A program made the position numbers and the translations under genes. From assembly GCA_965208835.1 (NCBI GenBank), contig OZ242358.1, forward strand, positions 4,928,001 through 4,992,000: DNA of 64,000 bases, given 5' to 3'. Source of the DNA: Candidatus Latescibacterota bacterium (GTDB taxonomy: Bacteria > Latescibacterota > UBA2968 > GCA-2709665). The notes beneath the pieces are model-generated. The model did no database searches, had not been told where the DNA came from, and saw only the letters and a program-made list of their open reading frames with translations. Positions 4,300-62,775 of this stretch are shown piece by piece (the stretch's first letter is position 1; each line of letters starts with the position of its first letter).

Positions 4300-4468
4300 G
4301 GCGGGCAGAGGTGAGAGGGGAGACGTTAGACGGGAGAGATTACCTGCCTTGAGAGGATACATTTCGTGCCGAAGGCAAGGAGGAAAAACATACCGGGCGA
4401 GGATTTCTTCTCCCGTCTCACCTCTCCCGTCTCCCCGCCTTTTTTCTACCGTCTTACCTCTACCCGCC
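4300..4468 (+). repeat. Heptamer-arm/hairpin-core intergenic element, copy 1 (core type A)
   Basis: Left arm ggcggg-cagagg-tgagagg-ggagacg-ttagacg, core attacctgccttg...tgccGAAggca...gggcgaggatttc, right arm cccgtct-cacctct-cccgtct...acccgcc. Confidence 0.9.
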
Positions 4469-4478
4469 TTTCGGCCGG

Positions 4479-4922
4479 CTATTCCTTCACAACCCACACC
4501 TTCACTGTGGCGCTGACGTCGGCGTGAAGCCGGATGGAGACGTCGTAGACGCCGAGAGCGCGGATGGGTTCCTCTAGCTCGATCAACCGCCGGTCGATCT
4601 CGAAGCCCTGCTCGACGAGATGCTCGGAAATGTGCTGCGTGGTCACGGAGCCGAAAATATGGTCTTCCTTGCCCACCGCAACCGGTATGGTGCAGGATGC
4701 CTTTTCGAGCTTCTTCGACAGCGCCACGGCGTCGCGCTGGGCGCGGTTGTGGCGGGCCTCCTTCTGGCGCTTGAGCTCCTCGTAGACCTTCATATTACCC
4801 CTGCTGGCGACGAGGGCCAGATTCCGGGGGAGGAGGAAGTTCCTGGCGTACCCGTCCTTCACGTCCACGACGGACCCGGCATCGCCCAGGTTGTCCAGTG
4901 TTTCGGTAAGAATGATTTTCAT
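4479..4922 (-). CDS. rplI: 50S ribosomal protein L9
   Basis: MKIILTETLDNLGDAGSVVDVKDGYARNFLLP and IFGSVT motifs; position after rpsF-rpsR. Confidence 0.98.
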   Translation of the reverse strand: MKIILTETLDNLGDAGSVVDVKDGYARNFLLPRNLALVASRGNMKVYEELKRQKEARHNRAQRDAVALSKKLEKASCTIPVAVGKEDHIFGSVTTQHISEHLVEQGFEIDRRLIELEEPIRALGVYDVSIRLHADVSATVKVWVVKE

Positions 4923-4980
4923 AGTGGTTCCCTTTCCATCTGCGCATTGGCCAAATGGCTGTTTGCGTTAGTAATTGAAA

Positions 4981-5010
4981 GAGGGTAGACGTAAGACGTA
5001 AGACGGGAGA
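4981..5010. repeat. Isolated heptamer arm downstream of the four-helix-bundle gene
   Basis: gagg-gtagacg-taagacg-taagacg-ggaga, the same heptamers as in the element arms. Confidence 0.85.
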
Positions 5011-5071
5011 TGATATGAGTGCCCTATCGGCTTAAAAGATGTAAAAACAATGGCTAAGTTATCCGCCTGGG

Positions 5072-5431
5072 TTAACGTGAAACTTTGCTAATCAATCCTG
5101 ACAGCAAACCAAACATTCGGTTCATTGTTTCTGTTATTGACTGAACGTCATCCTCCGAACACAATTGGAGGTTTAGTGCAATTTCAAGCTGAGTATCCAA
5201 CTCAACCAACGAACTCCTGGCTATTTCGAGAAATCTTCTACGTTCAGAATTCGAAGATCTCGCTGATCCTTCGGCGATGTTGGACGGTATTGAGACAGCA
5301 GATCGTCGCAACTGGCTGGTAATGCCAAAAAGCTCGGTGGAGGGGAATTCAGCGGTCAGGGTATAAATCTCGTTAACCAGATCAATGCTCTTTTGCCATA
5401 CTACAAGCTTCTTGTGGCTGAGTTCCATCAT
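5072..5431 (-). CDS. Four helix bundle protein (23S rRNA IVP family PF05635 / Avd-like)
   Basis: Family signature HKKLVVWQKS...FPSTELFGITSQLRRSAVSIPSNIAEG...FLEIARSSLVELDTQLEIA. GC is about 42-43% in two 60-nt lines counted, well below the flanking genes. Confidence 0.93.
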   Translation of the reverse strand: MMELSHKKLVVWQKSIDLVNEIYTLTAEFPSTELFGITSQLRRSAVSIPSNIAEGSARSSNSERRRFLEIARSSLVELDTQLEIALNLQLCSEDDVQSITETMNRMFGLLSGLISKVSR

Positions 5432-5502
5432 TGTGTCTTGGGTCTATCCTTTTTGACCCGCCACGGGACCAGGCAGCGAGGTTCTTTCTCCCAAGTCTTC
5501 CC

Positions 5503-5743
5503 GAGGTTAGACGAAAGACGTAAGAGGGGAGAAGACCACACCACACCCCACCTCCTGGTGAGACGTGAGCCGGGAGAGGGGGAAAAAACCGGGTAGACGG
5601 GAGACGTAAGACGGGAGAAGATGTCCTCGCCGGCTATCTTATCCCTCCTTGCCTCCGGCACGAAAAGAAGCCGCACAAGGCAGGAAATCTCTACCCTCTA
5701 CCGTCTTACCTCTTCCCGCCTTTCTTCTACCGTCTCACCGCCT
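5503..5743. repeat. Heptamer-arm element copy 2, with C-rich module; core inverted (on - strand, ~5617-5692)
   Basis: Reverse complement of ~5617-5692 reads agatttcctgccttgtgcggcttcttttcgtgccGGAggcaaggagggataagatagccggcgaggacatc. Right end abuts the rpsR stop codon. Confidence 0.9.
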
Positions 5744-5968
5744 TTACGACATGCTGTCCGTTGCAAAAGGCAACAGCGCGATCTGGCGGGCGCGTTTCAG
5801 GTGCCGGGTGAGGCTGCGCTGGTGCCGGGCGCACGTTCCCGATACGCGCCGGGGAATGATCTTTCCGCGGTCCGTGACGAACCGCTGCATCAGCCGTACG
5901 TCCTTATAGTCTATCGTCAACGCCTTGTCTTCGCAAAATCTGCAAACCTTCACCGTGGACCGGTTCAT
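5744..5968 (-). CDS. rpsR: 30S ribosomal protein S18
   Basis: CRFC...IDYKD...[15 protein letters not shown]...HQR...KRAR..ALLP. Confidence 0.98.
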
Positions 5969-6354
5969 GCTCCCTCCTCGTTCTCGACGCCGCTTTCGTC
6001 TTCCTCTTCCTCTTCGCCGCCATCCGCTTCGTCATCCTCGACCTCTTCCGGTTCTTCCTCCACCGGGGTTTCGTCCAGAACCACCAGGTGCCGCAGTAGG
6101 GACTCATCCAGCTTGAGTACGCGGTCGATTTCGGGAAGGGCCTCCGGCGGAGCCTCGAACCGGACGAACGTATAGTCTCCGCGGTTCTGCTTGCCGATAT
6201 CGTAGGCAAGCTTGCGGTTGCCCCAGCGATCCACCTCCACCGAGCGGCCGCCGCCTTCGGAAACGAGGCGATCGAAGCGCGCGACGAGATCGTCGACCGT
6301 GCCATCGGGCGCCTGCGGGTTGACAATGAGCGTGAGTTCGTAACGTCTGGACAT
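5965..6354 (-). CDS. rpsF: 30S ribosomal protein S6 with acidic tail
   Basis: RRYEL..I..P, WG.RKLAY.I motifs; ATGA overlap with rpsR. Confidence 0.97.
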
Positions 6355-6415
6355 GGAACCTCCCCCTGGACAAGTGGCCCGCGGGCAGCCCGACCGGGCG
6401 CGCGCGAGCGGGGTA
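6355..6415 (-). promoter_or_regulatory. Putative S6:S18 autoregulatory leader (rpsF leader)
   Basis: Minus strand reads ccccGCTC...GGGCCActtgtccagggGGAGGttccATG: a stem, a CCR motif, and a cccc able to pair with the SD region, as in known rpsF leaders. Confidence 0.65.
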
Positions 6416-6458
6416 ATTGGGAAAACAGCTATCAGTGGTCAGACAAAAGCGAAAAGGC

Positions 6459-6483
6459 GGGCGACCACAAGGGTCGCCCCTAC
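6459..6483 (-). repeat. GTAG-type REP palindrome
   Basis: gggcgacc-acaa-gggtcgccc-ctac (GTAG tag on - strand). Confidence 0.8.
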
Positions 6484-6504
6484 AAATACAATGTCGTTGC
6501 AGGA

Positions 6505-6564
6505 AGAAGTGATAGACGACAAAGTTACCGCCACTTCTTCTTTCTTCCTTTTTCCTTCTTCCTT
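6505..6564 (+). repeat. ~60-bp repeat with TTCTTCC heptamer tail (second copy at 12183)
   Basis: agaagtgatagacgacaaagttaccgccacttcttctttcttcctttttccttcttcctt is near-identical to 12183-12242. Confidence 0.85.
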
Positions 6565-6572
6565 TTGTTGAA

Positions 6573-8585
6573 TCAATCGATTAACAATGGCGCCAGAACC
6601 AGCGAGACAACGGACATGAGCTTGATCAATATGTTCAGCGAGGGGCCGGAGGTGTCCTTCAGCGGATCGCCCACGGTGTCGCCGACGACCGCGGCCTTGT
6701 GGGCGTCGGAGCCCTTGCCTCCGAAATTGCCCTCTTCGATGTGCTTCTTGCCGTTGTCCAGCACGCCGCCGCTGTTGGCCATCATCAGCGCCATGAGCAT
6801 GCCGCTCAACAGCGCCCCGGCCAGCATGCCGCCGAGCGCTTCCTTGCCGAGGATGAATCCGACCAGGACGGGCGTGAGCACGGCAACGATCCCGGGCGGC
6901 ACCATTTCCCGCAGGGCCGCGACCGTACTGATATCCACGCAGCGCCGTGTGTCGGGTTTGCCGGTGCCTTCCATCAATCCGGGGATCTCCCGGAACTGCC
7001 GGCGGACCTCTTCCACCATCCTGAATGCCGCCCGTCCCACCGAGGTCATGGTCTGCGCGGCCACGAGGAACGGGATGGAGCCGCCGATGAACAGGCCGAT
7101 TACCACCATCGGCGAGGTGAGGTTGATCACCTCCAGCTTCACGGTCGACGCATAGGCGGAGAACAGGGCCAGGGCCGTGAGGGCGGCCGAACCGATGGCG
7201 AAGCCCTTGCCGATGGCCGCCGTGGTATTGCCCAGCGCGTCCAGGCCGTCGGTAATCTTCCTGGTCTCCGGCCCGAGTTCGGCCATTTCGGAAATGCCGC
7301 CCGCGTTGTCCGCGATGGGCCCGTACGCGTCGACGGCCATGGTGATGCCCACGGTTGCCAGCATTCCCACGGCCGCGATGCCGATGCCGTATAGTCCGGC
7401 GAAGTGATAGGCGAACCCGATGGCGGCGCAGATGCACAGTACGGGCAGAAAGGTGCTCTGCATGCCGATGGCCAGGCCCGAGATGATATTGGTGGCGGGG
7501 CCGGTTTCAGACGATTCGGCCACTTTTCCTACCGGTGGGCCGCCGGTGTAGTATTCGGTGAGAAGGCCGATCAGAATGCCGGTGAGACCGCCCAGCAGGA
7601 TCGCCCAGAACACGCCCTCGGAGAGGCCCATGCCGTCCACCGCGAAATAGCTGCCGGCGAACATGACGCCCGCGGCCACGAAAGAAGCGTAGCGGAGGGC
7701 GGCCGCGGGACTGAAGCGCTGCAGGACCTGCATCGCCAGCACGCCGATCAGCGACGCCACCAGGCCGATGGTGGCCACGATGAGCGGCAGCTGCATGGCC
7801 GTCAGCTTCACGACCTCGACGTCAAATACGGAACTGCCGGCCAGCGTGGGTATCAGCGCCGGCGCCGCCGTGGCCGCAATGGCGATGGTCGCCACGATGG
7901 ATCCGACGTAAGACTCGAAGATGTCGGCCCCCATCCCGGCCACGTCGCCCACGTTGTCGCCCACGAAATCGGCGAGCGCCGCGGGGTTTCGCGGATCGTC
8001 CTCGGGAATGCCGGCCTCCACCTTGCCGACGAGATCGGCGCCCACGTCGGCCGTTTTGGTATAGATTCCGCCGCCCACGCGCGCAAAGAGGGCAATCGAA
8101 CTGGCGCCCATCGCGAACCCGTTGATGATCACCGCCTGTTCCGCGTTACCGTACAGAAGGAACAGCACGCCCACACCCAGCAGGCCCAGGCTGGCCACGG
8201 AGAGGCCCATCACCGTTCCGCCGGAAAACGCCACGCTCAGCGCGGTTGCCTGCCCCTCCTGGTTGGCGGCATACGCGGTGCGCACGTTGGCCTTGGTGGC
8301 TGCTTTCATCCCGAAAAAACCGGCGCATATCGAACAGATTGCGCCGGCCAGAAAGGCGAAGGCCGTGCTGAAGGGCCTGATGCCGATCGAAAGCAGGATG
8401 AATACCGCCACGACGAAGATCGCAAGCACGACGTATTCGCGCTTCAGAAACGCCATGGCGCCTTCGTGGATGGCATCCGAAATCTCCCGCATCCGGTCCG
8501 TACCGGCCGGTTTACGGGTAATCAGGATGTACACCAGGCCGGCGACCAGCAACCCGGCGATCCCAAATATTGGCGTCCAGAACAT
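6573..8585 (-). CDS. hppA: Membrane-bound pyrophosphatase, K+-dependent, probably Na+-translocating
   Basis: [25 protein letters not shown]..ADxVGDNVGD, [20 protein letters not shown] (Ala) indicates K+ dependence; DIFESY Glu is typical of Na+-PPases. Confidence 0.95.
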
Positions 8586-8601
8586 AAAACCCTCCAGAAA
8601 T

Positions 8602-8895
8602 CGGGGAGACGGAAGACGTTAGACGGGAGAGGATCCCACCCCGGCCCACCACCTGGTGAGACGTAAGCCGGGAGAGGTTAGAAAACCACACCCCGCCCCA
8701 CCACCTGGTGAGACGCAAGACGTGAGACGTTAGAGATTTCCTGCCCTGTGAGGTTTCCTCTCGTGCCGGAGGCAAGAAGGATTAGAATATAGGGCAAGGG
8801 CTTCTTCTCCCGTCTACCCTCTCACCTCTACCCGCATTTCTTCTACCGTCTACCCTCTTACCTCTACCCGCATTTTTTTTACCGTCTCCCCGCTT
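8602..8895 (+). repeat. Heptamer-arm element copy 3 (two C-rich modules, core type A)
   Basis: Fills the gap between the pth stop (8896) and the hppA RBS. Core atttcctgccctgtgagg...tgccGGAggca. Confidence 0.9.
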
Positions 8896-9453
8896 TTACG
8901 AATTGTACCTATTCATCGCCTCGTCGATTCCGCATTCCATCCAGCATTCCACGCCGCCGGCGGCTTCGCGGATCCCCGCGTCCACCGCGTCCCACTCATC
9001 GTCTTCGAACCGGCTGAGGACGTGTTCGACCCGGTCCGCGCCATCGGGCGGCGCGCCGATGCCCACTCGCAATCTGGGAAACGCCGCGGAACCTGCGAGG
9101 TCGATAATCGATCCCAGGCCATTGTGGCCCCCGTCGCTGCCCCGGCGCCGCAGCCGGATCCGGCCCAGATCCAGGTGAACGTCATCCGCAACCACCAGGA
9201 CGTCCCCGATATCGACGTCGAACCGATCCTGAACATCCGCAACCGCAACGCCGCTGCGATTCATGAAGGTAACGGGTTTCACCAGCAACAACGCGCCGGA
9301 TCCCTTCGCGATCCGGCAAAAAAAATACCAGGCGCCTTCCGACCAGGTTCCCTTCAGCCTTTCCGCCAGCAGATCCACCACCCGATAACCCAGGTTGTGG
9401 CGGGTATGAGCGTATTCGGAACCCGGGTTGCCCAGACCCACGACAACCTTCAC
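8896..9453 (-). CDS. pth: Peptidyl-tRNA hydrolase
   Basis: VVGLGNPG.EY..TRHN.G, KP.TFMN.SG, GGHNGL. GTG start at 9453 with GGAGG RBS; the ORF-track extension to 9570 is repeat-derived. Confidence 0.97.
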   Translation of the reverse strand: MKVVVGLGNPGSEYAHTRHNLGYRVVDLLAERLKGTWSEGAWYFFCRIAKGSGALLLVKPVTFMNRSGVAVADVQDRFDVDIGDVLVVADDVHLDLGRIRLRRRGSDGGHNGLGSIIDLAGSAAFPRLRVGIGAPPDGADRVEHVLSRFEDDEWDAVDAGIREAAGGVECWMECGIDEAMNRYNS

Positions 9454-9467
9454 GGAAAACCTCCAAA

Positions 9468-9623
9468 GGCGGGTAGACGTAAGACGTAAGAGGGGAGAGA
9501 TTTCCAGCCTTGTAAGGATTCTATTCGTGCCGGTGGCAGAAAGGAAAAACACACCGGGCAAGGATATCATCTACCGTCTAACGTCTTACCTCTACCCGCA
9601 TTTTTTCTACCGTCTCCCCACCG
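9468..9623 (+). repeat. Heptamer-arm element copy 4 (core type A)
   Basis: ggcggg-tagacg-taagacg...tgccGGTggca...ctaccgtctaacgtcttacctct; sits between the rplY stop and the pth RBS. Confidence 0.9.
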
Positions 9624-10307
9624 CTATTCCTCCTCTTCCTCCTCGTCCCTCTTGCCGCGTTCGATGACCTCGGGCTCCTGCATCTCTTCGTCTTCCTCGA
9701 GCACCTCTTCCTCTTCCTCTTCGACCTGGGCAATGGACGGCGGGACCACCACGAACACGGATCTGTCGCCGTCGGTGACGATCTCCACGTCGCCCGTGAC
9801 ACTCAGATCTGAAACGTGCACAGAGTCGCCTATATCCAGATTCGTAACGTCGAAGTTTATACTTTCAGGGATCTCGGCGGGCAGACACGACACCTCCAAC
9901 TGGTGCAGCAATTGCTCCAGTATACCGCCCTCCGTGCGGACGCCGGCCGGTATGCCTTCGGATTCGACACGGACTTCGACGACGATTTTCTGGGTGAGCG
10001 AGATCCGGTAGAAATCCGCGTGGAGGAGATGCCCGTCCACGGGATGGCGCTGAAGCTCCTTGACGATGGCGGTGTCCTCGGACTGCTCTTCTCCGTTGCC
10101 CACAACCAGGGACAGAAGCGAATTCCGACCATGCTCGTGAAGGACCGTTGACAACTCCTTCGCGTCGACCGAGCAGGCGACCGGCGCGCTCCTGTCGCCA
10201 TAGACGACCGCCGGAATCCTCCCGGTACGCCGCATGCGCCTCGCGTCGCCCTTACCGGTTCCGGTGCGTACCGCGGCCTGCAAACTTACACCGTCATTGC
10301 CAGCCAT
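9624..10307 (-). CDS. rplY: 50S ribosomal protein L25/Ctc
   Basis: R..TGKG.ARR.RR.G.IPAVVYG, Q.HP....LHADF, GG.L...L, LDIGDS.HV; acidic tail. Confidence 0.97.
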   Translation of the reverse strand: MAGNDGVSLQAAVRTGTGKGDARRMRRTGRIPAVVYGDRSAPVACSVDAKELSTVLHEHGRNSLLSLVVGNGEEQSEDTAIVKELQRHPVDGHLLHADFYRISLTQKIVVEVRVESEGIPAGVRTEGGILEQLLHQLEVSCLPAEIPESINFDVTNLDIGDSVHVSDLSVTGDVEIVTDGDRSVFVVVPPSIAQVEEEEEEVLEEDEEMQEPEVIERGKRDEEEEEE

Positions 10308-10351
10308 TTACAGAACCTCCCCAAAAGCTGTTCCATTTTATCATTAATATA

Positions 10352-10422
10352 CTGCCGGGCAGGGATTCGAACCCCGATAAACGGCTCCAAAGGCCGCTGT
10401 CTTACCCTTAGACGACCCGGCA
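10352..10422 (-). tRNA. tRNA-Gln (anticodon TTG), CCA not encoded
   Basis: tgccgggtcgtctaagggtaagacagcggcctTTGgagccgtttatcggggTTCGAATccctgcccggcag: acceptor stem, anticodon arm and T-loop present; canonical position after ispE. Confidence 0.95.
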
Positions 10423-10431
10423 TCACCAAAC

Positions 10432-10688
10432 GGTGAGACGTAAGACGTTAGAGGACCACACCCCACCACCTGGTGAGACGTGAGCCGGGAGAGGGTAGAG
10501 AACCAAACCCCGCCCGCCACATGGTGAGACGTGAGCCGGGAGACGGGAGAGATTACCTGCCTTGTGACGATTCTTATCGTGCCAAAGGCAAGGAGGAATA
10601 TCTCAGCTGGCAAGGATTTCTTCTACCGTCTTACGTCTACCCTCTACCCGCGTTTTTTCTACCGTCTCCCCTCTACCCTCTCCCCGCC
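10432..10688 (+). repeat. Heptamer-arm element copy 5 (two C-rich modules, core type A)
   Basis: Core attacctgccttgtgacg...tgccAAAggca...ggcaaggatttc; lies between ispE and tRNA-Gln. Confidence 0.9.
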
Positions 10689-10706
10689 TTTACGAATTGT
10701 ATCTAT

Positions 10707-11576: not shown

Positions 11577-11621
11577 ATCAACATACCTCGCAAATCGGCG
11601 TCACACGGAGACACCAAGAAA

Positions 11622-11890
11622 ACCTGGTGAGACGTGAGCCGGGAGAGGTTAGAAAACCACACCCCGCCCCACCACCTGGCGAGACGCAAGACGGGAGACG
11701 GGAGAGATTTCCAGCCCTGTAAGGATTCTTCTCGTGCCGGAGGCAAGAAGGAAAAATAGGTGGGGCAAAGATATCTTCTATCGTCTACCCTCTTACCTCT
11801 ACCCGCCTTTCTTCTACCGTCTACCCTCTTACCTCTACCCTCTACCCGCATTTTTTCTACCGTCTCACCTCTACCGTCTACCCGTCTCTC
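11622..11890 (+). repeat. Heptamer-arm element copy 6 (C-rich module, core type A, long right arm)
   Basis: Left part is nearly identical to 8650-8740; core tgccGGAggca. Confidence 0.9.
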
Positions 11891-12465: not shown

Positions 12466-12514
12466 GAGATTGTCTGTCACGCGACACCCCAATCATCCAT
12501 AACCTCTATAAAAT

Positions 12515-18010: not shown

Positions 18011-18013
18011 AAA

Positions 18014-18147
18014 AGCGGGGAGACGTAAGCCGGGAGAGGGTAGAGATTTCCTGCCCTGTGAGGTTTCCTCTCGTGCCGAAGGCAAGAAGGAATAACATAC
18101 CGGCAAGGGTTTCTTCTCCCGTCTACCGTCTTACCTCTACCCGTTTT
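18014..18147 (+). repeat. Heptamer-arm element copy 7 (core type A)
   Basis: Begins right after the activator stop codon; core tgccGAAggca. Confidence 0.9.
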
Positions 18148-19800: not shown

Positions 19801-19822
19801 TTGCCGTCAGCTGTCAGCCAAA

Positions 19823-20017
19823 AGCGGGGAGACGGGAGAGGGGAGAGGGGAGAGGGGAGAAGACCACACCCCACCCTGCCACCTGGTGAGAGGGGAGACG
19901 TTAGACGGGAGAGATTGCCTGCCTTGTGAGGTTTCTTCTCGTGCCGGAGGCAAGCAGTAGAAAAAATATCGGGCGAAGATTTCATCTACCGGCTTCCGTC
20001 TACCCTCTCCCCGCTTT
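19823..20017 (+). repeat. Heptamer-arm element copy 8 (C-rich module, core type A)
   Basis: aaagcggg...(ggagagg)n...tgccGGAggca...ccccgcttt. Confidence 0.9.
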
Positions 20018-20058
20018 TTCGCGACCTCTCCCCCCGGCATCTAAGAAACAGCCCGTTT

Positions 20059-23676: not shown

Positions 23677-23714
23677 AATTGCAATGAAGGCGCGGCGAGT
23701 GCTGAGCTCTCAGA

Positions 23715-23845
23715 AGCGGGTAGACGCAAGACGGGAGAGGGTAGAGATCGCATGCCGTGTAAGGTTTCTTCTCACGCCGCAGGCTAGTCGGAGGAACAAA
23801 TCGGCAAGGACTTCCTCTCCCGTCTACCGTCTTACGTCTAACCGC
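23715..23845 (+). repeat. Heptamer-arm element copy 9 (core type B)
   Basis: Core gatcgcatgccgtgtaagg...gccGCAggctagtcggaggaacaaatcggcaagg; abuts the xerD stop. Confidence 0.9.
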
Positions 23846-23846
23846 A

Positions 23847-24785
23847 TTATGCCCTTGGATGGAAAGTCCGGTGGACCTCTTTGAGGTATTCGCGGTCGAC
23901 GTGGGTGTAGATCTGCGTTGTCGAAATATCCACGTGGCCCAACATTTCCTGCACGGCCCGGAGGTCGGCGCCGCCTTCCAGCAGATGGGTCGCGAAAGAG
24001 TGACGCATCGTGTGCGGGCTGACCGATTTCCGGATACCGGAGTTCTGAACGTATCGCCTCAAAATCTTCCATACGCCCATTCGCGACATGGCCCCGCCGC
24101 GAAAATTCAGGAAAACCGTATTTCCCGACGCCGCACCGCTCAGTTCCTCACGTGCGCCCGTCAGATAGCGATTGACCCACGCCACGGCTTCCGTTCCGAT
24201 GGGTACGACCCGCTCCCGGCTGCCCTTGCCGATCACGCGAACCACCTCCAGGTCGAACAGGAGATGCAACCGTTCCAGGCCGATCAGCTCCGAAACCCGT
24301 AGACCCGCTCCGTACAACATCTCAAGCAGCGCGCGGTCCCGAAGGCCCAGAAGCGTCTCCACGTCCGGCTCCACCATCAGGCGTTCGACTTCGTATATGT
24401 TCAGGACGGATGGCAGTTTCCGCCCCAGTTTGGGCGACTTCATATGCTCGGTGGGGTCGTTTTCGATCATTCCCTCCGCGTGCAGGTACCGATGAAACAT
24501 CCGGACGGCAGTCAGGTTTCTCGCCACGCTGGACGCTTCCAGGCCGAGCTCTCCCAGCAAGTGAAGAAACGCGGATACGTCCGCCTGGGACACCTGGACG
24601 GGCGTTGTTACGCCCCGCGCCTCCAGAACCGTGGCGTACCGGTCCAGGTCCCTGGCATAGGCCGATACGGTATTCTCAGCCAGACCCTGCTCCAGGTGCA
24701 CGTAATCCATAAACCCGCGCAGCGCGTTGCGCCATTCCGCCGTCAGGCGTTGCTCGCCCGTATCAAAATCGGTCTCGACCGTCAT
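23847..24785 (-). CDS. xerD: Site-specific tyrosine recombinase XerD
   Basis: GLAENT..AY.RDL, RDRALLE.LY.AGLRVSEL, GKG..ERVVP, SPHT.RHSFATHLL.GGADLR.VQEMLGH.DISTTQIYTHV, HPRA. Confidence 0.95.
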   Translation of the reverse strand: MTVETDFDTGEQRLTAEWRNALRGFMDYVHLEQGLAENTVSAYARDLDRYATVLEARGVTTPVQVSQADVSAFLHLLGELGLEASSVARNLTAVRMFHRYLHAEGMIENDPTEHMKSPKLGRKLPSVLNIYEVERLMVEPDVETLLGLRDRALLEMLYGAGLRVSELIGLERLHLLFDLEVVRVIGKGSRERVVPIGTEAVAWVNRYLTGAREELSGAASGNTVFLNFRGGAMSRMGVWKILRRYVQNSGIRKSVSPHTMRHSFATHLLEGGADLRAVQEMLGHVDISTTQIYTHVDREYLKEVHRTFHPRA

Positions 24786-25314: not shown

Positions 25315-25356
25315 TGCGTTCTCCACGTTAATGGGCCTTTTTCCCGGCCCCTCAGA

Positions 25357-25577
25357 AGCGGGTAGACGTAAGACGTTAGACGGGAGAGGACCACACCCTG
25401 CCCCACCACCTGGTAAGACGTAAGCCGGGAGAGGGGAGAGATTTCCTGCCTTGTGAGGTTTCTTCTCGTGCCGGAGGCAACGATGAATAACATACCTGGC
25501 AATGATTTCATCTACCGTCTTACGTCTCCCGTCTACCCGCATTTTTTCTACCGTCTACCCTCTACCGTCTAACCACC
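25357..25577 (+). repeat. Heptamer-arm element copy 10 (C-rich module, core type A)
   Basis: Lies between uvrC and ogt; core tgccGGAggca. Confidence 0.9.
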
Positions 25578-25596
25578 TTTTGGCATTCCGACATTC

Positions 25597-32609: not shown

Positions 32610-33164
32610 ATGGCGGGGAAGTTTCTGGGCAGTTCACCTATGAAACCTCGATTCGATTCCGATTCCGGTGGCGGAAAGGTCCTCACACCGGATCAGGTCC
32701 GAGGGGTACGGCGGCGTCTCAAAGAGGCCGGCGCAACGCTGGTTTTCACCAATGGCTGCTTCGACCTGATCCATCCCGGCCACGTGGCGTTTCTTCAGCG
32801 GGCGCGTTCCCTGGGCGACGCGCTCCTCCTGGCGCTCAACAGCGACGACTCCGTGCGGCGCATCAAGGGCAGAGGCAGACCGATTCTGTCGATTGAGGAA
32901 CGGATCGGCGTGCTGTCCGGCCTGGAAGCCGTCGACTATATCTGTGTGTTCGAGGAAGACACGCCTCACGGTATCCTTCGAGACCTGCTGCCCGACATCC
33001 TGGTCAAGGGCGGGGACTATTCGCAGGACCAGATCGTCGCCCGCGAGGTCGTGGAGGACGCCGGCGGCCGCGCCGTAACCATATCCACGGCGTACCAAAC
33101 CTCAACCACCGCCGTCATCAAACGCATCTTAAAAACCAAGACATACAAAAGCGGGAAGACGTAA
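32610..33164 (+). CDS. rfaE2: Heptose-1-phosphate adenylyltransferase (RfaE domain II / HldC-like)
   Basis: FTNGCFD..HPGH, LNSD.SV..IKG.GRP, F.EDTP, LVKGGDY, STT. Start may be ATG 32640; the stop lies inside repeat copy 11. Confidence 0.92.
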   Translation: MAGKFLGSSPMKPRFDSDSGGGKVLTPDQVRGVRRRLKEAGATLVFTNGCFDLIHPGHVAFLQRARSLGDALLLALNSDDSVRRIKGRGRPILSIEERIGVLSGLEAVDYICVFEEDTPHGILRDLLPDILVKGGDYSQDQIVAREVVEDAGGRAVTISTAYQTSTTAVIKRILKTKTYKSGKT

Positions 33165-33279
33165 GCCGGGAGAGGGAAGAGATCGCATGCCGTGAAAGGT
33201 TTCTTCTCATGCCGCAGGCTAGTCGGAGTAACAAATCGGCAAGGGCTTCTTCTCCCGTCTTACCTCTACCGTCTCCCCG
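33150..33279 (+). repeat. Heptamer-arm element copy 11 (core type B)
   Basis: Core gatcgcatgccgtgaaagg...gccGCAggctagtcgg; ends 4 nt before the next ATG. Confidence 0.9.
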
Positions 33280-33283
33280 AATT

Positions 33284-57664: not shown

Positions 57665-57676
57665 CTCTAAGCCAAG

Positions 57677-57866
57677 AGCGGGTAGACGTAAGCCGGGAGA
57701 GGGGAGACGTAAGCCGGGAGAGGGGAGAGATCGGATGCCGTAAAGGGATTCCTTTTTTGCTGCAGACAAGTCGGAGGAACAAGCCGGCATAGGCTTCTTC
57801 TACCGTCTACCCTCTTCCCTCTACCCGCATTTTTTCTACCGGCTTCCCTCTCCCGTCTCACCGCCT
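57677..57866 (+). repeat. Heptamer-arm element copy 12 (core type B variant)
   Basis: Core gatcggatgccgtaaaggg...gctGCAgacaagtcggaggaacaagccggc. Confidence 0.88.
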
Positions 57867-58530: not shown

Positions 58531-58548
58531 ATAAAGCAGTCGGCTAAG

Positions 58549-58735
58549 AGCGGGAAGAGGAAAGACGTTAGACGGGAGAGTAACACACACCCCGACACCA
58601 CCTGGGGAGACGTGAGCCGGGAGACGGGAGAGATTATCTGCCTTGTAAGGATTCTTCTCGTGCCGGAGGCAGAGAGGAAAAACACACCGGGCAAGGATAT
58701 CATCTACCGTCTAACCTCTTACCTCTACCCGCCTT
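58549..58735 (+). repeat. Heptamer-arm element copy 13 (C-rich module, core type A)
   Basis: Core tgccGGAggca; tandem with copy 14 through linker gcgacctctctccccggcccctcagaa. Confidence 0.9.
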
Positions 58736-58766
58736 TAGGCGACCTCTCTCCCCGGCCCCTCAGAAC

Positions 58767-58931
58767 CGGTAAGAGGTGAGACGTTAGACGGGAGAGATTG
58801 CCTGCCTTGTGAGGATTCTTTTCGTGCCAAAGGCAACGAGGAATAACATGCCCGGCAATGATCTCATCTACCGTCTACCCTCTCACCTCTACCCGCATTT
58901 CTTCTACCGTCTACCCTCTTCCCTCTCCCCG
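58767..58931 (+). repeat. Heptamer-arm element copy 14 (core type A)
   Basis: Core tgccAAAggca; the right arm overlaps the 3' end of the methyltransferase gene. Confidence 0.9.
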
Positions 58932-59902
58932 TCTTTTACGACCGGTCTCATGGATTCGATGTGCTCGGGGCCGGTCGCACAGCAGCCGCCGATGATCTGC
59001 GCACCCATGGCCTTCCACGCGCCGGCGTAATCGGCAAGTCGATCGGGGGTGTTGTCGCCCTGCTGCAGGATTTCGGCCGGATCATCCGGCGTTTCTTCGC
59101 CCTCAGCCGGTCCCAGCGGCGCGAGCGGACGGTATCCGATATTCGGGTACGCGCCCACGCAGCCGTCGAATGCCTCCCTGAGGAGGGGAAGGCCGGCCGA
59201 GACCTCTTCCGGCGGCGTGCACATGAGCAGCACGCCGGCGACACCGCGGCCTTCCAGAGACGCGGCGAGGTCCTCCAGACGTTCCTCGTATTGCATGGTC
59301 CCGTCTTCCCGGATATGCCGGACACCCAGAAAGACAGGCAGGCCGGACGCCGCACCGGCATCCGCGGCCGCCACACAGTCGGCAACATATCCCACGTATT
59401 CCACCCAGACCGCGTCCACGCGCACCCCGGCCAGCAGCTTCGCGTGGTCGCGAATCTCCTTCCGGTACGCGTCCTCCCCCAGAATGTCCACGTCGGACGC
59501 GGTGCCGCCAACCCGCCTCTGGACACACGGCGGCGCGATGCCGCCGGCCACAAACGCATCCGGATTCACGGCATCGCGCGCGGCTATCGCGTTTTCGCCC
59601 GCGGCTGTCGCGTACGCTTCCCACCTGTCGCCCAGGCCGATGGGTTCCATCCGCGTGGGGCTCGTCCAGAAATTGTTGCTGATGATGATATCGGCGCCCG
59701 CCCGCAGGTAGTCCCCGTGGACCTCCCTCACCGCTTCGGGCGCGTCGATATTGGCCGTGGCGGACCAGGCCTGGAGGCCGTCCTCCGTTGTGGCGCCCTT
59801 CAGCACGTCGACACCTCGACGCTGCAGCTCAGATCCCGTTCCGCCATCCAGGAGCAGCGTATCACCGCTCTCGAGTCGATCCAGAATTCCATTTGTAGAC
59901 AT
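58904..59902 (-). CDS. Homocysteine S-methyltransferase family protein
   Basis: LLDGG.GSEL, H..YLRAGADII, MC, YPN, IGGCC..GPEHI. Confidence 0.92.
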   Translation of the reverse strand: MSTNGILDRLESGDTLLLDGGTGSELQRRGVDVLKGATTEDGLQAWSATANIDAPEAVREVHGDYLRAGADIIISNNFWTSPTRMEPIGLGDRWEAYATAAGENAIAARDAVNPDAFVAGGIAPPCVQRRVGGTASDVDILGEDAYRKEIRDHAKLLAGVRVDAVWVEYVGYVADCVAAADAGAASGLPVFLGVRHIREDGTMQYEERLEDLAASLEGRGVAGVLLMCTPPEEVSAGLPLLREAFDGCVGAYPNIGYRPLAPLGPAEGEETPDDPAEILQQGDNTPDRLADYAGAWKAMGAQIIGGCCATGPEHIESMRPVVKDGEREEGRR

Positions 59903-59921
59903 CGATTCCTCCTTATAAAAA

Positions 59922-60122
59922 CGGGGAGAGGGGAGACGTTAGACGGGAGAGATCGGATGCCGTAAAGGGATTCTTTTTTGCCGCCGGCAAGTCGGAGGAA
60001 CAAATCGGCAAGGGCTTCTTCTACCGTCTACCCTCTTCCCTCTACCCGCATTTCTTCTACCGTCTCACCTCTACCGTCTACCCGCATTTCTTCTACCGTC
60101 TACCCTCTTACCTCTACCCGCC
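59922..60122 (+). repeat. Heptamer-arm element copy 15 (core type B variant)
   Basis: Core gatcggatgccgtaaaggg...tgccGCCggcaagtcgg; right arm in three blocks. Confidence 0.9.
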
Positions 60123-60143
60123 TTTAGGCGACCTCTCGCCCCG

Positions 60144-61403
60144 TCACGACAATCGCGAATCGATATCCGGCAGAGTAAATCGCACCGTATCGAACCGCCG
60201 GGCCATCGCGACCGCGCGTTCCCTTGCGCCGTCCGGGTCCCGTTTGCTCACCACGTCCAGAATACAGCCGGCAATTTCGGGAGCATCCTCCTCCGTCATG
60301 CCGTATCGGGTCACTTCCTGCACGCCAATGCGGAGGCCGTGTCTCCCCATCTCTTTCGGCGCGCCGGCGGCGTTGACCAGAATATGGCAGGCCTCCAACT
60401 CTCTGACCAGCGCGCCGCTTTCGCCGAACGCATCCACAACCGGCAGCACGGTGTGAGATTCCGTAAACCCCCGGTCCGCGCCCACCACCGGCGCGCCCTG
60501 TTCGTGCAGCGCCCGGCCCAGCGCTTTGGCATTGCCGATGATCGCGTCGGCGTGTGCCCGTCCGCACGCCATCCACTCCAGGAACGTACCCGCGAGCGAC
60601 GGCAGACGGCTGAGGTGGTGGTTGGCAATCATCAGCGGCGATATCGCCTTCGCGATCCGTTCCGCGACGTCCCTGTCGTTGGTCAAAATCATACCCCCCT
60701 GCGGACCGGCCAGCGTCTTGTGCGTGCTGGTGATGATGACGTCCGCGCCTTCCGTGAGCGGAGACTGAAACCGACCGCCGGCAATCAGCCCCATCACGTG
60801 GGCCGCGTCGTAAACGAGGATCGAACCGGGACTGTACCGATCCATCGCGGTCCGCAGTTCCCGCACGGGCTGGGGAAAGACGAAATGCGCCGATCCGATG
60901 CTGACGAGTCCGGGGCGATGCTCGCGGATCAGCGAAACCGTTCGATCCAGGTCGATATTGGCGTTCATGGCGTCCCACGGGACCGGAATCGACTTCAGTT
61001 CCACGTTCAATCCCGAGTTCGCCAGCTTGGCGGCGTACATGTGCCCATTATGCACCTCCAGTACTGTATCACCGGGACGCCCAAGCGCGAACAACGCGAT
61101 GAGGCCCGCGATATTCCCCGAGAGCGGACGCAGGTCCACGTACGCCGCCCCGAAAAGCTGCTTCGCCAGGTCCTGCGCGACCTCCTCCATCTGCGTGAGG
61201 AACGCATTTCCCGGATACCCCCGGTTTCGCGGATCGATACCGGTATACGACCCGTACCTGTGGTCGAGATCGTTCACGATCAGACGCTCCACCAGCGGAC
61301 TGGGCCTGGTCTCCGAGGCGATCAGATTCAGACAGCTTTCCCGGAAGGTTTTGTGTTTTTCGACCAGGGCATCAATTTCCGCGACTTTACGTTTATAGTC
61401 CAT
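60144..61403 (-). CDS. Serine hydroxymethyltransferase-like PLP enzyme (atypical)
   Basis: LIASE, PLSG, YDAAH..GLIAGG, TSTHKTLAGPQGG, R.G..E.TR.G; lacks the YAEG and GGHL.HG motifs. Confidence 0.85.
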   Translation of the reverse strand: MDYKRKVAEIDALVEKHKTFRESCLNLIASETRPSPLVERLIVNDLDHRYGSYTGIDPRNRGYPGNAFLTQMEEVAQDLAKQLFGAAYVDLRPLSGNIAGLIALFALGRPGDTVLEVHNGHMYAAKLANSGLNVELKSIPVPWDAMNANIDLDRTVSLIREHRPGLVSIGSAHFVFPQPVRELRTAMDRYSPGSILVYDAAHVMGLIAGGRFQSPLTEGADVIITSTHKTLAGPQGGMILTNDRDVAERIAKAISPLMIANHHLSRLPSLAGTFLEWMACGRAHADAIIGNAKALGRALHEQGAPVVGADRGFTESHTVLPVVDAFGESGALVRELEACHILVNAAGAPKEMGRHGLRIGVQEVTRYGMTEEDAPEIAGCILDVVSKRDPDGARERAVAMARRFDTVRFTLPDIDSRLS

Positions 61404-61416
61404 GGGGTAATCCCGT

Positions 61417-62475
61417 CTATATCGCTTTTCGGGTTAACGCCTCGATCAGGTCGACCTCGCTATAGAGAAGCGCGCGCGCAAAGGCGCCCTCGCCCAGGTA
61501 ATCGGTTGCGTTCCACACCCGGGGCGTGCTGTAATAGGCCGTTACGAGCCGCTCCCCCAACCGGACGGTGGAGGGATAGCCCAGGTCGCGGTTCCCCAGG
61601 TCGTCGCACACAATCAGGGGACCGCTCCAGGTCCGGCCCGAGTCTTTGCTCACCCTGGCCTGGACGCCGAACGGTTCGCGGCGGACGCCATACACCATCA
61701 GAACCCAGTCGTTGGACAGCAGCGTGAGGTCCGCCGGGTGTTCCCGCTCCCTGGTCACCTCCGACGGTTCGTCCCAGGTGCAGCCTCCATCCGTGGATCG
61801 GGACACCGAGACGAGGCCGCTCCGGTCCGCCGAACGCATCGCGGCCAGAAGAACCCCGTCGGACGTCAGGAGCAGGGCCGTTTCGTTGTACCGTTCGGCA
61901 ATCAGCGACGGCCGATCCCAGGTCCGGCCGTTGTCGTCGGAACGAAGGATATACGCGCAGTCGTCCGCTTCGTCTGCGGAATCGTTATCGGAACCGTAGA
62001 GCGGCAGCAGCATTGTCCCGCCGGGAAGGGTCACTATGTGGCCGAACGCGGAGTGCTTTTTCATCGCAGGGAATCCGAGGGGCCGATCGTCTTCCCAGCT
62101 TCGCCCTCCATCGCGTGAACGGACGACGCGCATCTGCACCCGACGCAACTCCGGAGACCAGGTACCGTCTTCGCCGTAGGACCCCTGTGTGTGGTACGCC
62201 AGCACAACGGTCTCGTCGGGCGCGACGCCCACCGCGGGATTCCGGTCGTCCGCCTGCGAGTCGACGATCACGACCGGCGATTCCCACGTACGCCCACCGT
62301 CCGTCGAACGGATCGCCTCCAGGCGGCCGGTAACGCCCACGTGACCCGCACCGGCGCGGATCACGGCCAGGACTTCCTCGCCGCGTACGCTGGCGAGTAC
62401 GGGAAAATAGCCCCGGTCCCTGCAGAGATACACCTCGGAAGCTGAAGGAAAATGGCGGAAATCAATGGTGGCCAT
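61417..62475 (-). CDS. BNR/Asp-box (exo-alpha-sialidase-like) protein
   Basis: Five S.D.G.TW-type Asp-boxes (STDGGRTW, SRDGGRSW, SDDNGRTW, STDGGCTW, SKDSGRTW); DLGYP. Confidence 0.9.
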   Translation of the reverse strand: MATIDFRHFPSASEVYLCRDRGYFPVLASVRGEEVLAVIRAGAGHVGVTGRLEAIRSTDGGRTWESPVVIVDSQADDRNPAVGVAPDETVVLAYHTQGSYGEDGTWSPELRRVQMRVVRSRDGGRSWEDDRPLGFPAMKKHSAFGHIVTLPGGTMLLPLYGSDNDSADEADDCAYILRSDDNGRTWDRPSLIAERYNETALLLTSDGVLLAAMRSADRSGLVSVSRSTDGGCTWDEPSEVTREREHPADLTLLSNDWVLMVYGVRREPFGVQARVSKDSGRTWSGPLIVCDDLGNRDLGYPSTVRLGERLVTAYYSTPRVWNATDYLGEGAFARALLYSEVDLIEALTRKAI

Positions 62476-62643
62476 GAGAAACCCCTTTCAATAATCAACT
62501 AACGGCGGGGGCGAATGCGTAAGTCAGCTCACACGAAGACACGAAGAAAAGCTGTCAGCTAAAGGCATAAAACAAAAGTCAGAAACCAAATTCAACATCC
62601 ACATCTCCCCAAATTCCCTGCCTACGGTGTGTTCCTTGAAAAA

Positions 62644-62775
62644 CGGGGAAGACGTGAGACGGGAGAGGGTAGAGATTGCCTGCCTTGCGAGGTTTCTTTT
62701 CGTGCCAGAGGCAAGAAAGATGAAAATATCGGGCAAGGACTTCCTCTACCGGCTTCCCTCTACCTTCTCACCGCC
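62644..62775 (+). repeat. Heptamer-arm element copy 16 (core type A)
   Basis: Core attgcctgccttgcgagg...tgccAGAggca...gggcaaggac. Confidence 0.9.

Follow-up and report, generated by a model that had tools for sequence, protein, structure and literature searches.

The window analysed here, a 64,000-nt stretch of a Candidatus Latescibacterota genome, carries a repeat that is probably a genus-restricted, non-coding, non-autonomous selfish DNA element of the MITE/ERIC kind. The family is new; its unusual features are a heptamer skeleton, the lack of target-site duplication and its orphan status. Searched with an nhmmer profile of the window copies, the 5.18-Mb genome yields 184 cores, all of them intergenic and none in the 3′ portion of any called gene. 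In the window the profile gives exactly 16 matches, 15 on the plus strand and one on the minus strand, and the full-length 83-nt core is present at all 16 positions at which an earlier sequence-only reading had placed a copy. That reading had also suggested a non-autonomous mobile-like element, with which the sharp-ended discrete units, a scored copy number of 1 to at least 86 among the genomes of the genus, variable spacer occupancy and near-identical copies megabases apart are in agreement.

The basic repeat unit is discrete, approximately 135 bp long and an imperfect palindrome along its full length. It consists of an A-rich edge, GCGGG, about three NNAGASG heptamers, the 83-nt core, about three CSTCTNN heptamers, CCCGC and a T-rich edge. 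The tip of the palindrome is the TGCC-GGA-GGCA stretch at the middle of the core, and the unit folds as one rod rather than, as had been described, with the core forming its own hairpin between the arms. The proposed GCGGG...CCCGC termini hold genome-wide: the left one begins 26 nt upstream of the core in 129 of 148 units and the right one finishes 20 nt past it in 126 of 157. At the unit edges, A is found at -3 in 121 of 135 cases and the three bases of TTT in 141, 137 and 118 of 154. The heptamer arms greatly exceed chance expectation: arrays of at least three units number 217 (purine-type) and 207 (pyrimidine-type) across the genome, where a shuffled 1-Mb sequence gave 0 and 1; 411 of these 424 arrays lie no more than 500 nt from a core. 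Among pairwise alignments over the core (n=9005), 6231 stop 20-39 nt to its left and 6092 stop 10-29 nt to its right. Within the heptamers A, G, A and the final G are invariant, the remaining positions varying freely and independently between arms, and left arms differ from reverse-complemented right arms in their base preferences. In the core, 29 of the 83 columns are at least 95% conserved, even though pairwise identity averages 0.745.

Simple units of 100-149 nt account for 119 of 182 repeat clusters, the longer copies being composites with additional half-arms and the C-rich module (Table 1). The idea of expanding arms is only partly correct: most inner arms have a fixed length, and growth does not proceed by single heptamers. 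Longer copies gain a whole module at a time, either one right half-arm of ~29-43 nt or a new left arm together with a C-rich module. The copy at 5503, which had been assigned the common layout, does possess the core, but its unit is inverted with respect to the plus-oriented outer modules alongside.

Table 1. Copies of the repeat in the window, with one core-less heptamer array
Position	Strand	Core	Organization	Location
4300..4470	+	4335-4417	unit with one additional right half-arm	adjoins rplI (4479-4922, -)
4978..5005	+		core-less orphan purine-type heptamer array	adjoins 23S-rRNA-IVS-protein gene (5072-5431, -)
5503..5748	-	5610-5692 (-)	composite: + left arm, C-rich module and arm, then whole inverse unit, then additional half-arm	
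8602..8897	+	8732-8814	composite: three left arms split by two C-rich modules; ~3 right arms (36-nt period)	H+-PPase / pth spacer
9468..9625	+	9496-9578	simple unit with short additional half-arm	occupies whole L25-pth spacer, stop codon to ribosome-binding site
10432..10695	+	10548-10630	composite: two C-rich modules, two right arms	between tRNA (10352-10422, -) and GHMP-kinase gene
11622..11890	+	11703-11785	composite: one C-rich module, ~3 right arms	
18012..18147	+	18042-18123	simple unit	sigma-54 activator gene / HtrA-like protease gene spacer
19821..20022	+	19910-19992	composite: GGGGAGA-type left array, one C-rich module	
23713..23848	+	23743-23824	simple unit, core subtype B	right end 1 base off stop codon of adjoining - strand gene
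25355..25580	+	25437-25519	composite: one C-rich module, two right arms	
33148..33283	+	33178-33259	simple unit, core subtype B	
57675..57866	+	57726-57807	unit with duplicated left arm (21-nt period), two right arms	
58547..58745	+	58629-58711	composite: one C-rich module	
58767..58935	+	58793-58875	unit with two right arms	immediately downstream of 58547..58745 copy
59922..60125	+	59948-60028	unit with three right arms (36-nt period)	
62644..62775	+	62671-62752	simple unit	divergent spacer

The density of cores along the chromosome is very uneven, from 0 at 2.6-3.0 Mb to 32 at 4.8-5.0 Mb. Units are indifferent to the orientation of genes (72 antisense, 59 sense); 36 of the 184 are found in divergent spacers, an enrichment over the 12.5% that these make up of all spacers, and 17 in convergent spacers, which are not enriched. 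Adjacent cores share a strand in 117 of 183 pairs, where about 93 are expected (permutation p ~1e-4); these same-strand runs fit local copying, with regional strand bias accounted for only in part. Units also bunch and nest with other repeat families. Beside some of them lies a GTAG-headed, REP-like palindrome, which is a distinct repeat.

Evidence for recent copying comes from 25 of the 184 units, whose best partner is at least 95% identical, and from 38 pairs of at least 93% identity, many with members 0.4-2.5 Mb apart. Alignment of 15 near-identical pairs reveals unrelated flanks and, in most cases, sharp ends. In these, similarity ends at the right terminus (CCCG/CCCGC) or a few bases beyond it, at the left terminus or within the arms, or at the edge of an enclosing larger repeat. 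The absence of a target-site duplication, already remarked upon in the window, extends to the genome: the best 4-mer flank match occurs in 3 of 52 simple units and in 1-4 across 20 permuted controls, and young copies (partner at least 95% identical) likewise lack a duplication at their sharp ends. Local recombinational copying is documented by 24 nt (10692-10715) at the 10432 copy, which elsewhere in the genome occur only beside the 8602 copy (8898-8921). This stretch belongs natively to the 8602 locus, being present there in a species that has no core at that site. In a relative and at locus L148, where the tRNA spacer is empty, it is missing. The 10432 copy was made locally, carrying along 24 nt of flank from its donor, the 8602 copy.

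The core model matches 15 of the 53 genomes of the order, namely the window's own genome and all 14 congeners; there are no matches among seven genomes from other genera of the family or 31 genomes of the second family. The scored copies number 1, 9, 10, 38, 44, 55, 59, 60 and 73 per genome, and at least 86, the scoring cap, in six further genomes. Heptamer arrays of the same kind, but core-less, occur in another genus, in two of the 16 genomes searched. No similarity to the repeat was found in the plasmids, phages and viral contigs searched, and no Rfam family matches it, even with E allowed up to 1 over window positions 8500-12000. Occupancy of orthologous spacers differs among species, as expected of a mobile element; a syntenic 20-kb region contains 9, 8, 8, 2, 0 and 0 cores in six genomes. 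In a relative's tRNA spacer the core is, by eye from printed sequences, identical to the window core at 8732, which lies in another spacer. The sole comparison of a filled and an empty site, also of the tRNA spacer, involves replacement of 13 nt rather than plain insertion. Copies also turn over in place: similarity between cores at orthologous loci (0.75-0.77) does not exceed that between non-orthologous ones from those species pairs (0.75-0.76), and four-fold sites of flanking genes are 0.74-0.77 identical. Against a selfish nature, the conserved blocks and this near-neutral, not greater, ortholog divergence could reflect a selected host function.

One such function, which we consider unlikely, is that of a host-useful RNA cis-element, a hairpin in operon transcripts that would stabilise the mRNA, be processed by RNase III/E or attenuate weakly in both directions, and whose repetition would stem from recruitment to many operons. 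Units do lie within the conserved gene clusters L25-pth, kinase-tRNA and rpsF...rplI, which we take to be usually co-transcribed, and three of five folded units form long rods on either strand with strong z-scores (-7.4/-9.1, -4.6/-3.8 and -5.1/-6.2), but the other two are hardly better than shuffles (-2.1/-1.8 and -1.9/-2.4). The G+C-rich stem base beside the A-rich edge and TTT would also suit such an element, yet a simple terminator scan flagged no unit. Wobble-compatible mismatches favour the plus reading (120 vs 53), which is explained by the arms preferring different bases. Compensatory change is absent from both arms and core: variable arm positions are complementary at 21.7 of 30, compared to 22.3 of 30 in permuted arm pairs; the top covarying core columns represent non-Watson-Crick subfamily linkage; and RNAalifold assigns 32 cross-species cores a covariation term of -0.08 kcal/mol, with a double change in 1 of 16 pairs. 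These results and the indifferent orientation speak against the structured ncRNA family that the sequence-only reading had offered as its other option. The enrichment in divergent but not convergent spacers is also at odds with a transcript-borne function, and sister species get by on 1, 9 or 10 scored copies.

Quite unlikely, in our estimation, is a DNA-level protein-binding array of iteron-like inverted heptamers round a conserved middle, recognized by a putative lineage-specific nucleoid or topology protein in the manner of E. coli BIME/RIP elements (gyrase, IHF) or centromere-like sites. The invariant heptamer skeleton with its free, arm-independent other positions, the primary-sequence conservation of the core, the immateriality of gene orientation and the core-less arrays of another genus are all congruent with it. 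However, no candidate binding protein was identified, and a range of 1 to 184 copies in one genus and unconserved orthologous occupancy argue against a needed chromosomal function. The very uneven distribution along the chromosome also counts against such an array, and a spacing of 7 bp is out of step with the helical repeat of DNA.

A classical MITE driven by a transposase, with an autonomous partner that is missing here or too diverged to recognise and with decayed target duplications, is very doubtful. The terminal inverted repeats, small size, intergenic location, the bursts seen in certain species and the tendency to cluster and nest with other repeats would fit such an element, and both the fading of flanking direct repeats with age and the insertion of bacterial repeats into each other are described in PMC10969869. 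However, target-site duplication is absent even from the young copies. The genome encodes no transposase or reverse transcriptase attributable to the repeat family: family searches for Y1/RAYT, IS110, TnpB, DDE_Tnp_1 and RVT_1 returned no match in the genome, which extends the earlier observation that the window has no transposase, and the only four rve genes (1.095-1.124 Mb) are unlinked to units. Among repeats of at least 500 bp none has arms or exceeds a few copies, one segmental duplication excepted, and the core-less arrays flank no ORF-bearing element save one 119-aa IVS-protein gene. Small structured RNA genes, each independently transcribed, are extremely improbable despite conservation of the 83-nt stretch in 15 genomes, for there is no Rfam match, no covariation and, in a scan of 4000-23999, no promoter-like site that recurs consistently with the units, both orientations to genes occur, and spacers are filled from stop codon to ribosome-binding site.

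For the selfish MITE/ERIC-like repeat that we favour, a putative trans-acting activity would insert units end-precisely and without duplication, reading the invariant AGA-G heptamer skeleton and the invariant middle blocks as DNA sequence rather than as a perfect hairpin. The 29 conserved core columns and the lack of excess complementarity in the arms point to such recognition by sequence rather than pairing. Host recombination and replication slippage among the many similar heptamer arrays might then overwrite resident copies, invert units, produce local copies in the same orientation that at times bring flanking bases along, and assemble composites by adding half-arms and C-rich modules. Any influence on neighbouring genes, for example through a hairpin in the mRNA of an operon, would be incidental. 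Two points count against this reading: the missing target-site duplication, which is a defining MITE feature, and the failure of the family searches and of the inspection of larger repeats to turn up a mobilising enzyme.

The closest parallel is ERIC (IRU), listed as an imperfect palindrome of ~127 bp and classed as a MITE (PMC3184786, Table 1). The units resemble it in size, in being one long imperfect palindrome, in their strictly intergenic location, often within operons, in occurring in either orientation, in the widely varying copy number among related species, in having longer variants and in encoding no transposase. They differ in sequence (20,395 E. coli records contained no blastn match), in a host of another phylum and in stems made of 7-nt units; where ERIC-type copies are described as having TA and target duplications on both ends (PMC3184786), the A-rich and T-rich edges here lack duplication. 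Bacterial MITEs in general are described as multicopy, intergenic sequences of <500 bp with terminal inverted repeats and a non-coding middle, able to fold into long hairpins (PMC3184786, PMC10969869). The present family shares all of this with Correia, RUP, Nezha and Chunjie; unlike them it has no target-site duplication and no parent IS or matching transposase, and it is G+C-rich, not A+T-rich.

BOX elements of Streptococcus pneumoniae are given as modular (boxA-boxB(n)-boxC), 67-637 bp and 'MITE-like' (PMC3184786), and as bunching with and inserting into other repeat families (PMC10969869). The units are likewise modular, with a variable number of internal or lateral modules, and bunched with or inserted into other repeats, but their modules are palindrome half-arms plus a C-rich spacer instead of tandem boxB units, and the sequence is probably unrelated. 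With the REP/BIME/REPIN systems and their RAYT transposase (PMC3733652; PMC3116915) they share palindromic structure, intergenic location, mosaic clusters with other motifs and the lack of target duplication. REPs, however, measure 20-40 bp as opposed to ~135 bp, and their defining RAYT/Y1 gene is absent here. The cyanobacterial STRR are short tandemly repeated heptamers, the Foldback elements of Drosophila have inverted arms of short tandem units in variable number, and small dispersed repeats nested in hairpins were reportedly described by Elhai and co-workers in 2008. The intergenic tandem heptanucleotide arrays, the repeats within repeats and the inverted arms of variable unit number are features shared with these systems. 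Sequences and hosts differ from theirs, and the arrays here are short (mostly 3-4 units) and arranged as inverted pairs about one conserved middle.

In the window, the sequence-only reading had described one common layout at 16 positions; it is seen at each of them by inspection, and a profile built from the window copies recovers exactly 16 full-length cores. The genome is a single contig of 5,180,620 bases and 59.5% G+C, of which the window covers bases 4,928,001-4,992,000; in it the same profile identifies 184 cores (103 on +, 81 on -). NNAG[AC][CG]G arrays with three units or more number 217 and those of the complementary type 207 (0 and 1, respectively, in 1 Mb of shuffled sequence), and all but 13 of these 424 arrays have a core within 500 nt. 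The 16 of 16 cores and the array counts against the shuffled control establish the heptamer-armed family as real and well beyond chance.

The ends of the unit were set by motif distances and by the ends of pairwise alignments; MFE folds of single sequences with 70-nt flanks proved too noisy for this purpose. The left terminus ([CT]GG[GT]-N-AGASG) starts exactly 26 nt upstream of the 83-nt core in 129 of 148 units, and the right terminus, with the consensus CSTCT-N-M-CCGC, ends 20 nt past it in 126 of 157. Among 9005 core-spanning pairwise alignments, the left end falls 20-39 nt out in 6231 and the right end 10-29 nt out in 6092. Outside the left terminus is an A-rich edge, with A at position -3 in 121 of 135 units; outside the right terminus is a TTT (141, 137 and 118 of 154 units at the three positions). 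The units are small non-coding multicopy elements of less than 500 bp. Their terminal inverted repeats, GCGGG and heptamers on the left and heptamers and CCCGC on the right, stand at constant spacing to the core.

Simple units of 100-149 nt make up 119 of the 182 repeat clusters, the remainder being composites with the largest below 400 nt. The arms had been thought to expand. Longer copies do exist, but they have grown by extra right half-arms, or by a C-rich module with a new left arm. Each extra right half-arm begins by repeating the end of the core (TRF periods of 36 and 43 nt), and the C-rich module is present in about 28 of 180 units by a crude regex parser and in 20 by a stricter pattern. 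In the copy at 5503 a complete unit lies inverted beside + oriented outer modules, and the identical junction occurs at one more locus.

On either strand the unit folds as one long imperfect rod with its tip, TGCC-GGA-GGCA, in mid-core. The core had been described as a conserved hairpin between the arms; since the tip of the whole-unit rod falls inside it, it is instead the distal half of the palindrome and not a hairpin of its own. The z-scores of the folds against shuffles are uneven (-7.4/-9.1, -4.6/-3.8, -5.1/-6.2, -2.1/-1.8 and -1.9/-2.4 for five units). In 88 standard units the two arms are complementary at 21.7 of 30 positions, compared to 22.3 of 30 when arms are paired randomly between units; the skeleton of constant bases (A, G, A and the final G) thus accounts for all of the pairing. 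Between the two arms of a unit, the C/G position and the two variable bases vary independently, and left arms and reverse-complemented right arms prefer different bases, which produces a recurrent mismatch.

Of the 83 columns of the core, 29 are conserved at 95% or more, 47 at 85% or more and 15 at less than 70%, the mean pairwise identity among cores being 0.745. The 25 most strongly covarying column pairs are mostly non-Watson-Crick and track two core subtypes. For 32 cores, taken from this genome and from 16 loci in others, RNAalifold returned -7.65 kcal/mol; the covariation term was -0.08, and a double change was present in one of 16 pairs. For 183 distinct cores it returned no structure on either strand. 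Averaged pair probabilities suggest an outer helix and a tip hairpin, yet with almost no varying pairs. Compensatory base-pair changes were found neither in the arms nor in the core, with a power that is limited because many columns never vary. Rfam at gathering scores detects only the tRNA in the whole window, and at E values up to 1 the interval 8500-12000 contains only that tRNA and a chance overlap upon it. The proposal of a structured ncRNA family is therefore not supported, there being no covariation in arms or core and no Rfam family that matches the units. Hairpin pairing matters little or not at all for them. An invariant skeleton and conserved blocks that lack complementarity suggest sequence recognition by a protein, which may be a mobiliser or a host factor.

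Gene context was taken from a rough purpose-made gene caller (3590 genes). None of the 184 cores lies inside the 3' part of a called gene; 72 are antisense and 59 sense between tandem genes, 36 occupy divergent and 17 convergent spacers, and all spacers of the genome are 75% tandem, 12.5% divergent and 12.5% convergent. The neighbours in the window are housekeeping genes (rplI, rpsF, H+-pyrophosphatase, pth, L25, GHMP kinase, a tRNA, a TPR protein, a sigma-54 activator and an HtrA-like protease), which we take to be co-transcribed. Several units span their spacer wholly, from stop codon to the next ribosome-binding site, and must therefore be tolerated within normally operonic transcripts. A simple terminator scan of 4000-23999 detected 16 terminator-like sites, none within a unit. 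When the closeness of unit ends to start and stop codons was examined, 28 of 137 putative starts had a ribosome-binding motif; open frames are very common at this G+C content.

Core density is very uneven, from 0 at 2.6-3.0 Mb to 32 at 4.8-5.0 Mb, and adjacent cores share a strand in 117 of 183 pairs, where about 93 are expected (p ~1e-4). Gene orientation is rejected as the source of this regional bias by the antisense and sense counts. Replication-strand bias is likewise rejected: GC skew turns near 0 and 2.67 Mb, and orientation against the local sign of the skew gives 65/53/38/28.

Coordinates of units, neighbouring repeats and genes in the window (w), the whole contig (g) and related genomes
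Feature	Location	Strand	Description
Core of copy 8602	w 8732-8814
24-nt stretch beside copy 8602	w 8898-8921
24-nt end of copy 10432	w 10692-10715
Separate ~230-bp repeat, example	w ~16230-16470	-
Cores on one strand	g 4,923,195-5,176,552	+	33 of 34 cores
Core cluster	g 4,206,000-4,216,000	-	Ten cores in 10 kb, partly via a ~1.6-kb segmental duplication
rve-domain ORFs (four)	g 1,094,952-1,124,237		All within 30 kb; two inside a duplicated ~1.4-kb segment
First IVS-protein gene	w 5072-5431	-	119 aa; PF05635, E 1.7e-37; weak bAvd-like match; within rpsF...rplI cluster
Purine-type heptamer array	w 4978-5005		Runs into a shared ~20-nt stretch; first IVS-protein gene directly behind it
Second IVS-protein gene	g 5,107,564-5,107,878		Arrangement as for the first
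Third IVS-protein gene	g 607,400-608,200		Inside a long tandem array of a ~43-nt pyrimidine-rich unit
GTAG-headed REP-like palindrome	w ~23650-23690		Perfect, ~18-24 nt; also in many flanks, often adjoining units
Two recurrent modules left of many units	e.g. w 58740-58770, 25330-25356		C-rich, ~25 nt, ending ...TCAGAAG; ~40 nt, ending ...GTTCCTTAAAAG
Tandem CSTCTNN arrays, other genus	G022 and G034 (L126-L147)		Long, without the 83-nt core, beside a different GTAG-type palindrome
Miniature hairpin, other genus	L131		Arm, 20-nt loop, arm
Tandem cores, relative	G014		Four, identical-scoring, ~200 nt apart

Several other repeats share these spacers. Relatives carry variants of the GTAG-headed palindrome, and the genome of the window has no Y1/RAYT gene. 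Arrays of a different, CAGC-type heptamer also occur in these spacers in several species. Two of the four genes for 23S-rRNA-intervening-sequence (IVS) proteins lie beside heptamer arms and the remaining two are set in different repeat arrays; a general link between the units and such genes is rejected, as arms adjoin only 2 of the 4.

A sequence-only core model was scanned against 53 genomes of the order. It matches 15, namely the genome of the window and all 14 congeners, and none of the 7 genomes from the family's other genera or the 31 from the second family. The scored copies per genome are 1, 9, 10, 38, 44, 55, 59, 60 and 73, and at least 86 in six genomes; how far above this lower bound the true values go is illustrated by the genome of the window, with its 184 by profile. 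Core-bearing public records are labelled Candidatus Latescibacterota, "Gemmatimonadota bacterium RHO..." or "uncultured bacterium". A collection scan with a loose pattern, which is no census, found the core in 20 of 113 loci among the matches listed. With a whole-unit query, 2 of 16 genomes of another genus match in the arms only. Plasmids, phages, viral contigs and E. coli genomes gave no match, and from a single metagenome scan came one close relative (L148, 87% protein identity) but nothing at the level of strains. Among sequencing runs, DNA runs were found with shares of 0.13-0.95, and no RNA run.

Occupancy of orthologous spacers differs between relatives, here at the species level: a syntenic 20-kb region contains 9, 8, 8, 2, 0 and 0 cores in six genomes, and the core-free species often carry other repeats in the corresponding spacers. 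Cores at the same locus are 0.75-0.77 identical between species and those at different loci 0.75-0.76, so that the cores retain no memory of orthology; at the four-fold degenerate sites of six flanking genes, identity is 0.77 and 0.74. Either orthologous cores would have been overwritten from the pool, or their variable columns would have become saturated while the invariant ones were held. The tRNA-spacer core of one relative is, as judged by eye, identical to the window core of copy 8602, which lies in a different spacer.

The genome has young copies. A partner at least 95% identical exists for 25 of the 184 units, and 38 pairs reach 93% identity or more, often over distances of 0.4-2.5 Mb. 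Fifteen such pairs were aligned; in most, similarity stopped on the right at the terminus (CCCG/CCCGC) or a few bases beyond it, on the left at the terminus or inside the low-complexity arms, or else where a larger repeat enclosing the unit ends. Their flanks are unrelated. The lack of a target-site duplication, first noted in the window, is borne out: the best 4-mer flank match is 3 of 52 simple units, compared to 1-4 in permuted controls, and no duplication is apparent by eye (unscored) at the printed boundaries of the 15 young pairs. Neighbouring cores are slightly more alike, core identity being 0.768 within 2 kb and 0.742 beyond 1 Mb, with the closest-sequence partner less than 50 kb away for 25 of 184 cores compared to 7.6 expected.

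One copying event can be followed in the window. The copy at 10432, in the kinase-tRNA spacer, ends in 24 nt whose sole other occurrence in the genome is beside the copy at 8602. The stretch is native to the latter locus in a species without a core there; the empty tRNA spacers of one relative and of L148 lack it and have 13 other bases in its place. From this donor flank it follows that an entire spacer was copied over 1.8 kb with its orientation kept, and that the copy took the place of the resident sequence without duplication. Judging from these spacers, the origin of copy 10432 is recombinational or replicative copying, not transposition.

Units also travel inside other repeats. A separate repeat of about 230 bp, variable in its middle and bounded by imperfect inverted ends of its own, has 86 matches in the genome; 19 of these hold a unit in mid-element, where it replaces some 60 nt of the usual middle, and one such unit-bearing composite subfamily is dispersed along the chromosome. 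Larger repeats are scarce: only 34 intervals of at least 500 bp at 85% identity or more were found, nearly all two-copy, and among them heptamer arms are confined to a segmental duplication at 4.21 Mb, where both halves have them.

The window had been reported to contain no transposase, and this extends to the genome for the six families searched: PF01797 (Y1/RAYT), PF01548 (IS110), PF07282 (TnpB-type), PF01609 (DDE_Tnp_1), rve and RVT_1. There is no match to any of these profiles except the four rve genes at 1.095-1.124 Mb. As a control, the PF01797 search had matches in 6 of 14 control genomes. Retro-copying of the units is rejected, as RVT_1 has no match.

At the population level the family behaves like selfish mobile DNA: its units are discrete, have multiplied in bursts in some species while sisters almost lack them, include young dispersed copies, nest with other repeats and are indifferent to how genes are oriented. 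Of the two earlier proposals, a non-autonomous mobile element or a structured ncRNA, the former agrees with this behaviour and the latter is not supported, covariation being absent. Protein binding is a possible secondary role of the units, as is a role at the RNA level; both lose weight because covariation is missing and copy number runs from 1 to 184 in a single genus.

A bolder proposal, which we consider improbable, is that the units spread by a mobilisation route undescribed in bacterial repeats, in which a lineage-specific activity outside the searched families is combined with host recombination. What this activity would read, as double-stranded sequence, is the AGA-G periodicity of the heptamers together with the constant blocks of the middle part; insertion or conversion of units would be exact at GCGGG/CCCGC and would leave the target unduplicated. 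The remaining rearrangement would be host recombination between heptamer arrays, and the core-less arrays of the other genus might represent an older landing or recognition substrate. If this mobilisation reading were true, the units would constitute an orphan palindrome system that renews itself without a transposase, within a genome almost devoid of other mobile DNA.

What is gained is a well-delimited repeat family from an uncultured lineage, and a sharper form of the old question of how ERIC-like palindromes multiply without transposase or target duplication. The question is unusually testable here because the genome is nearly without other mobile DNA, sister genomes carry 1-184 copies, several genomes are closed and one copying event has been reconstructed base by base. 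In practice, the 184 units and the neighbouring repeat families occupy many operon spacers, and should be masked or modelled in annotation, assembly and binning.

The layout had been considered unlike REP/BIME, CRISPR, attC and classical MITEs, and for each of these systems some defining feature is indeed missing. Integron attC sites are imperfect palindromes that end in GTTRRRY/RYYYAAC core sites, whereas the unit terminates in CSTCT-N-M-CCGC; attC cassettes form one-directional arrays beside intI, and the genes between the units are syntenic housekeeping genes, present also in species without units. CRISPR has regular short direct repeats separated by unique spacers; the units are palindromes of 135 nt, with window cores spaced from 164 nt to about 24 kb and genes between them. 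Intrinsic terminators and SPRITE-like elements have a G+C-rich stem with a U-tract and favour the 3' ends of genes, above all convergent ones. A short TTT follows the stem of the units, but 17 of 184 cores lie in convergent and 36 in divergent spacers, each class making up 12.5% of spacers across the genome. The REP/REPIN-RAYT system is characterized by a Y1 HUH (RAYT) gene, absent here (PF01797, 0 matches), and by a 20-40 bp palindrome headed GTAG/CGTC, in contrast to a unit of about 135 nt with GCGGG/CCCGC ends. With MITEs the units share small size, terminal inverted repeats and, at the species level, presence/absence differences between relatives, but they lack two defining features, target-site duplication and, for the families searched, a cognate IS or transposase with the same ends. 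ERIC is the nearest system in form and habits, yet it shares no sequence with the units (blastn, E. coli genomes only); PMC3184786 describes ERIC-type copies with TA and duplications. Literature on heptameric or dispersed repeats and on ERIC provided general context only, and in searches for the lineage with repeats and for heptamer strings in text, supplementary files being outside their reach, the family is undescribed. MITE-like in form, without target duplication, a transposase of the searched families, RAYT or ERIC sequence, the units are therefore best regarded as a new family of the MITE/ERIC kind that stands outside the named families.
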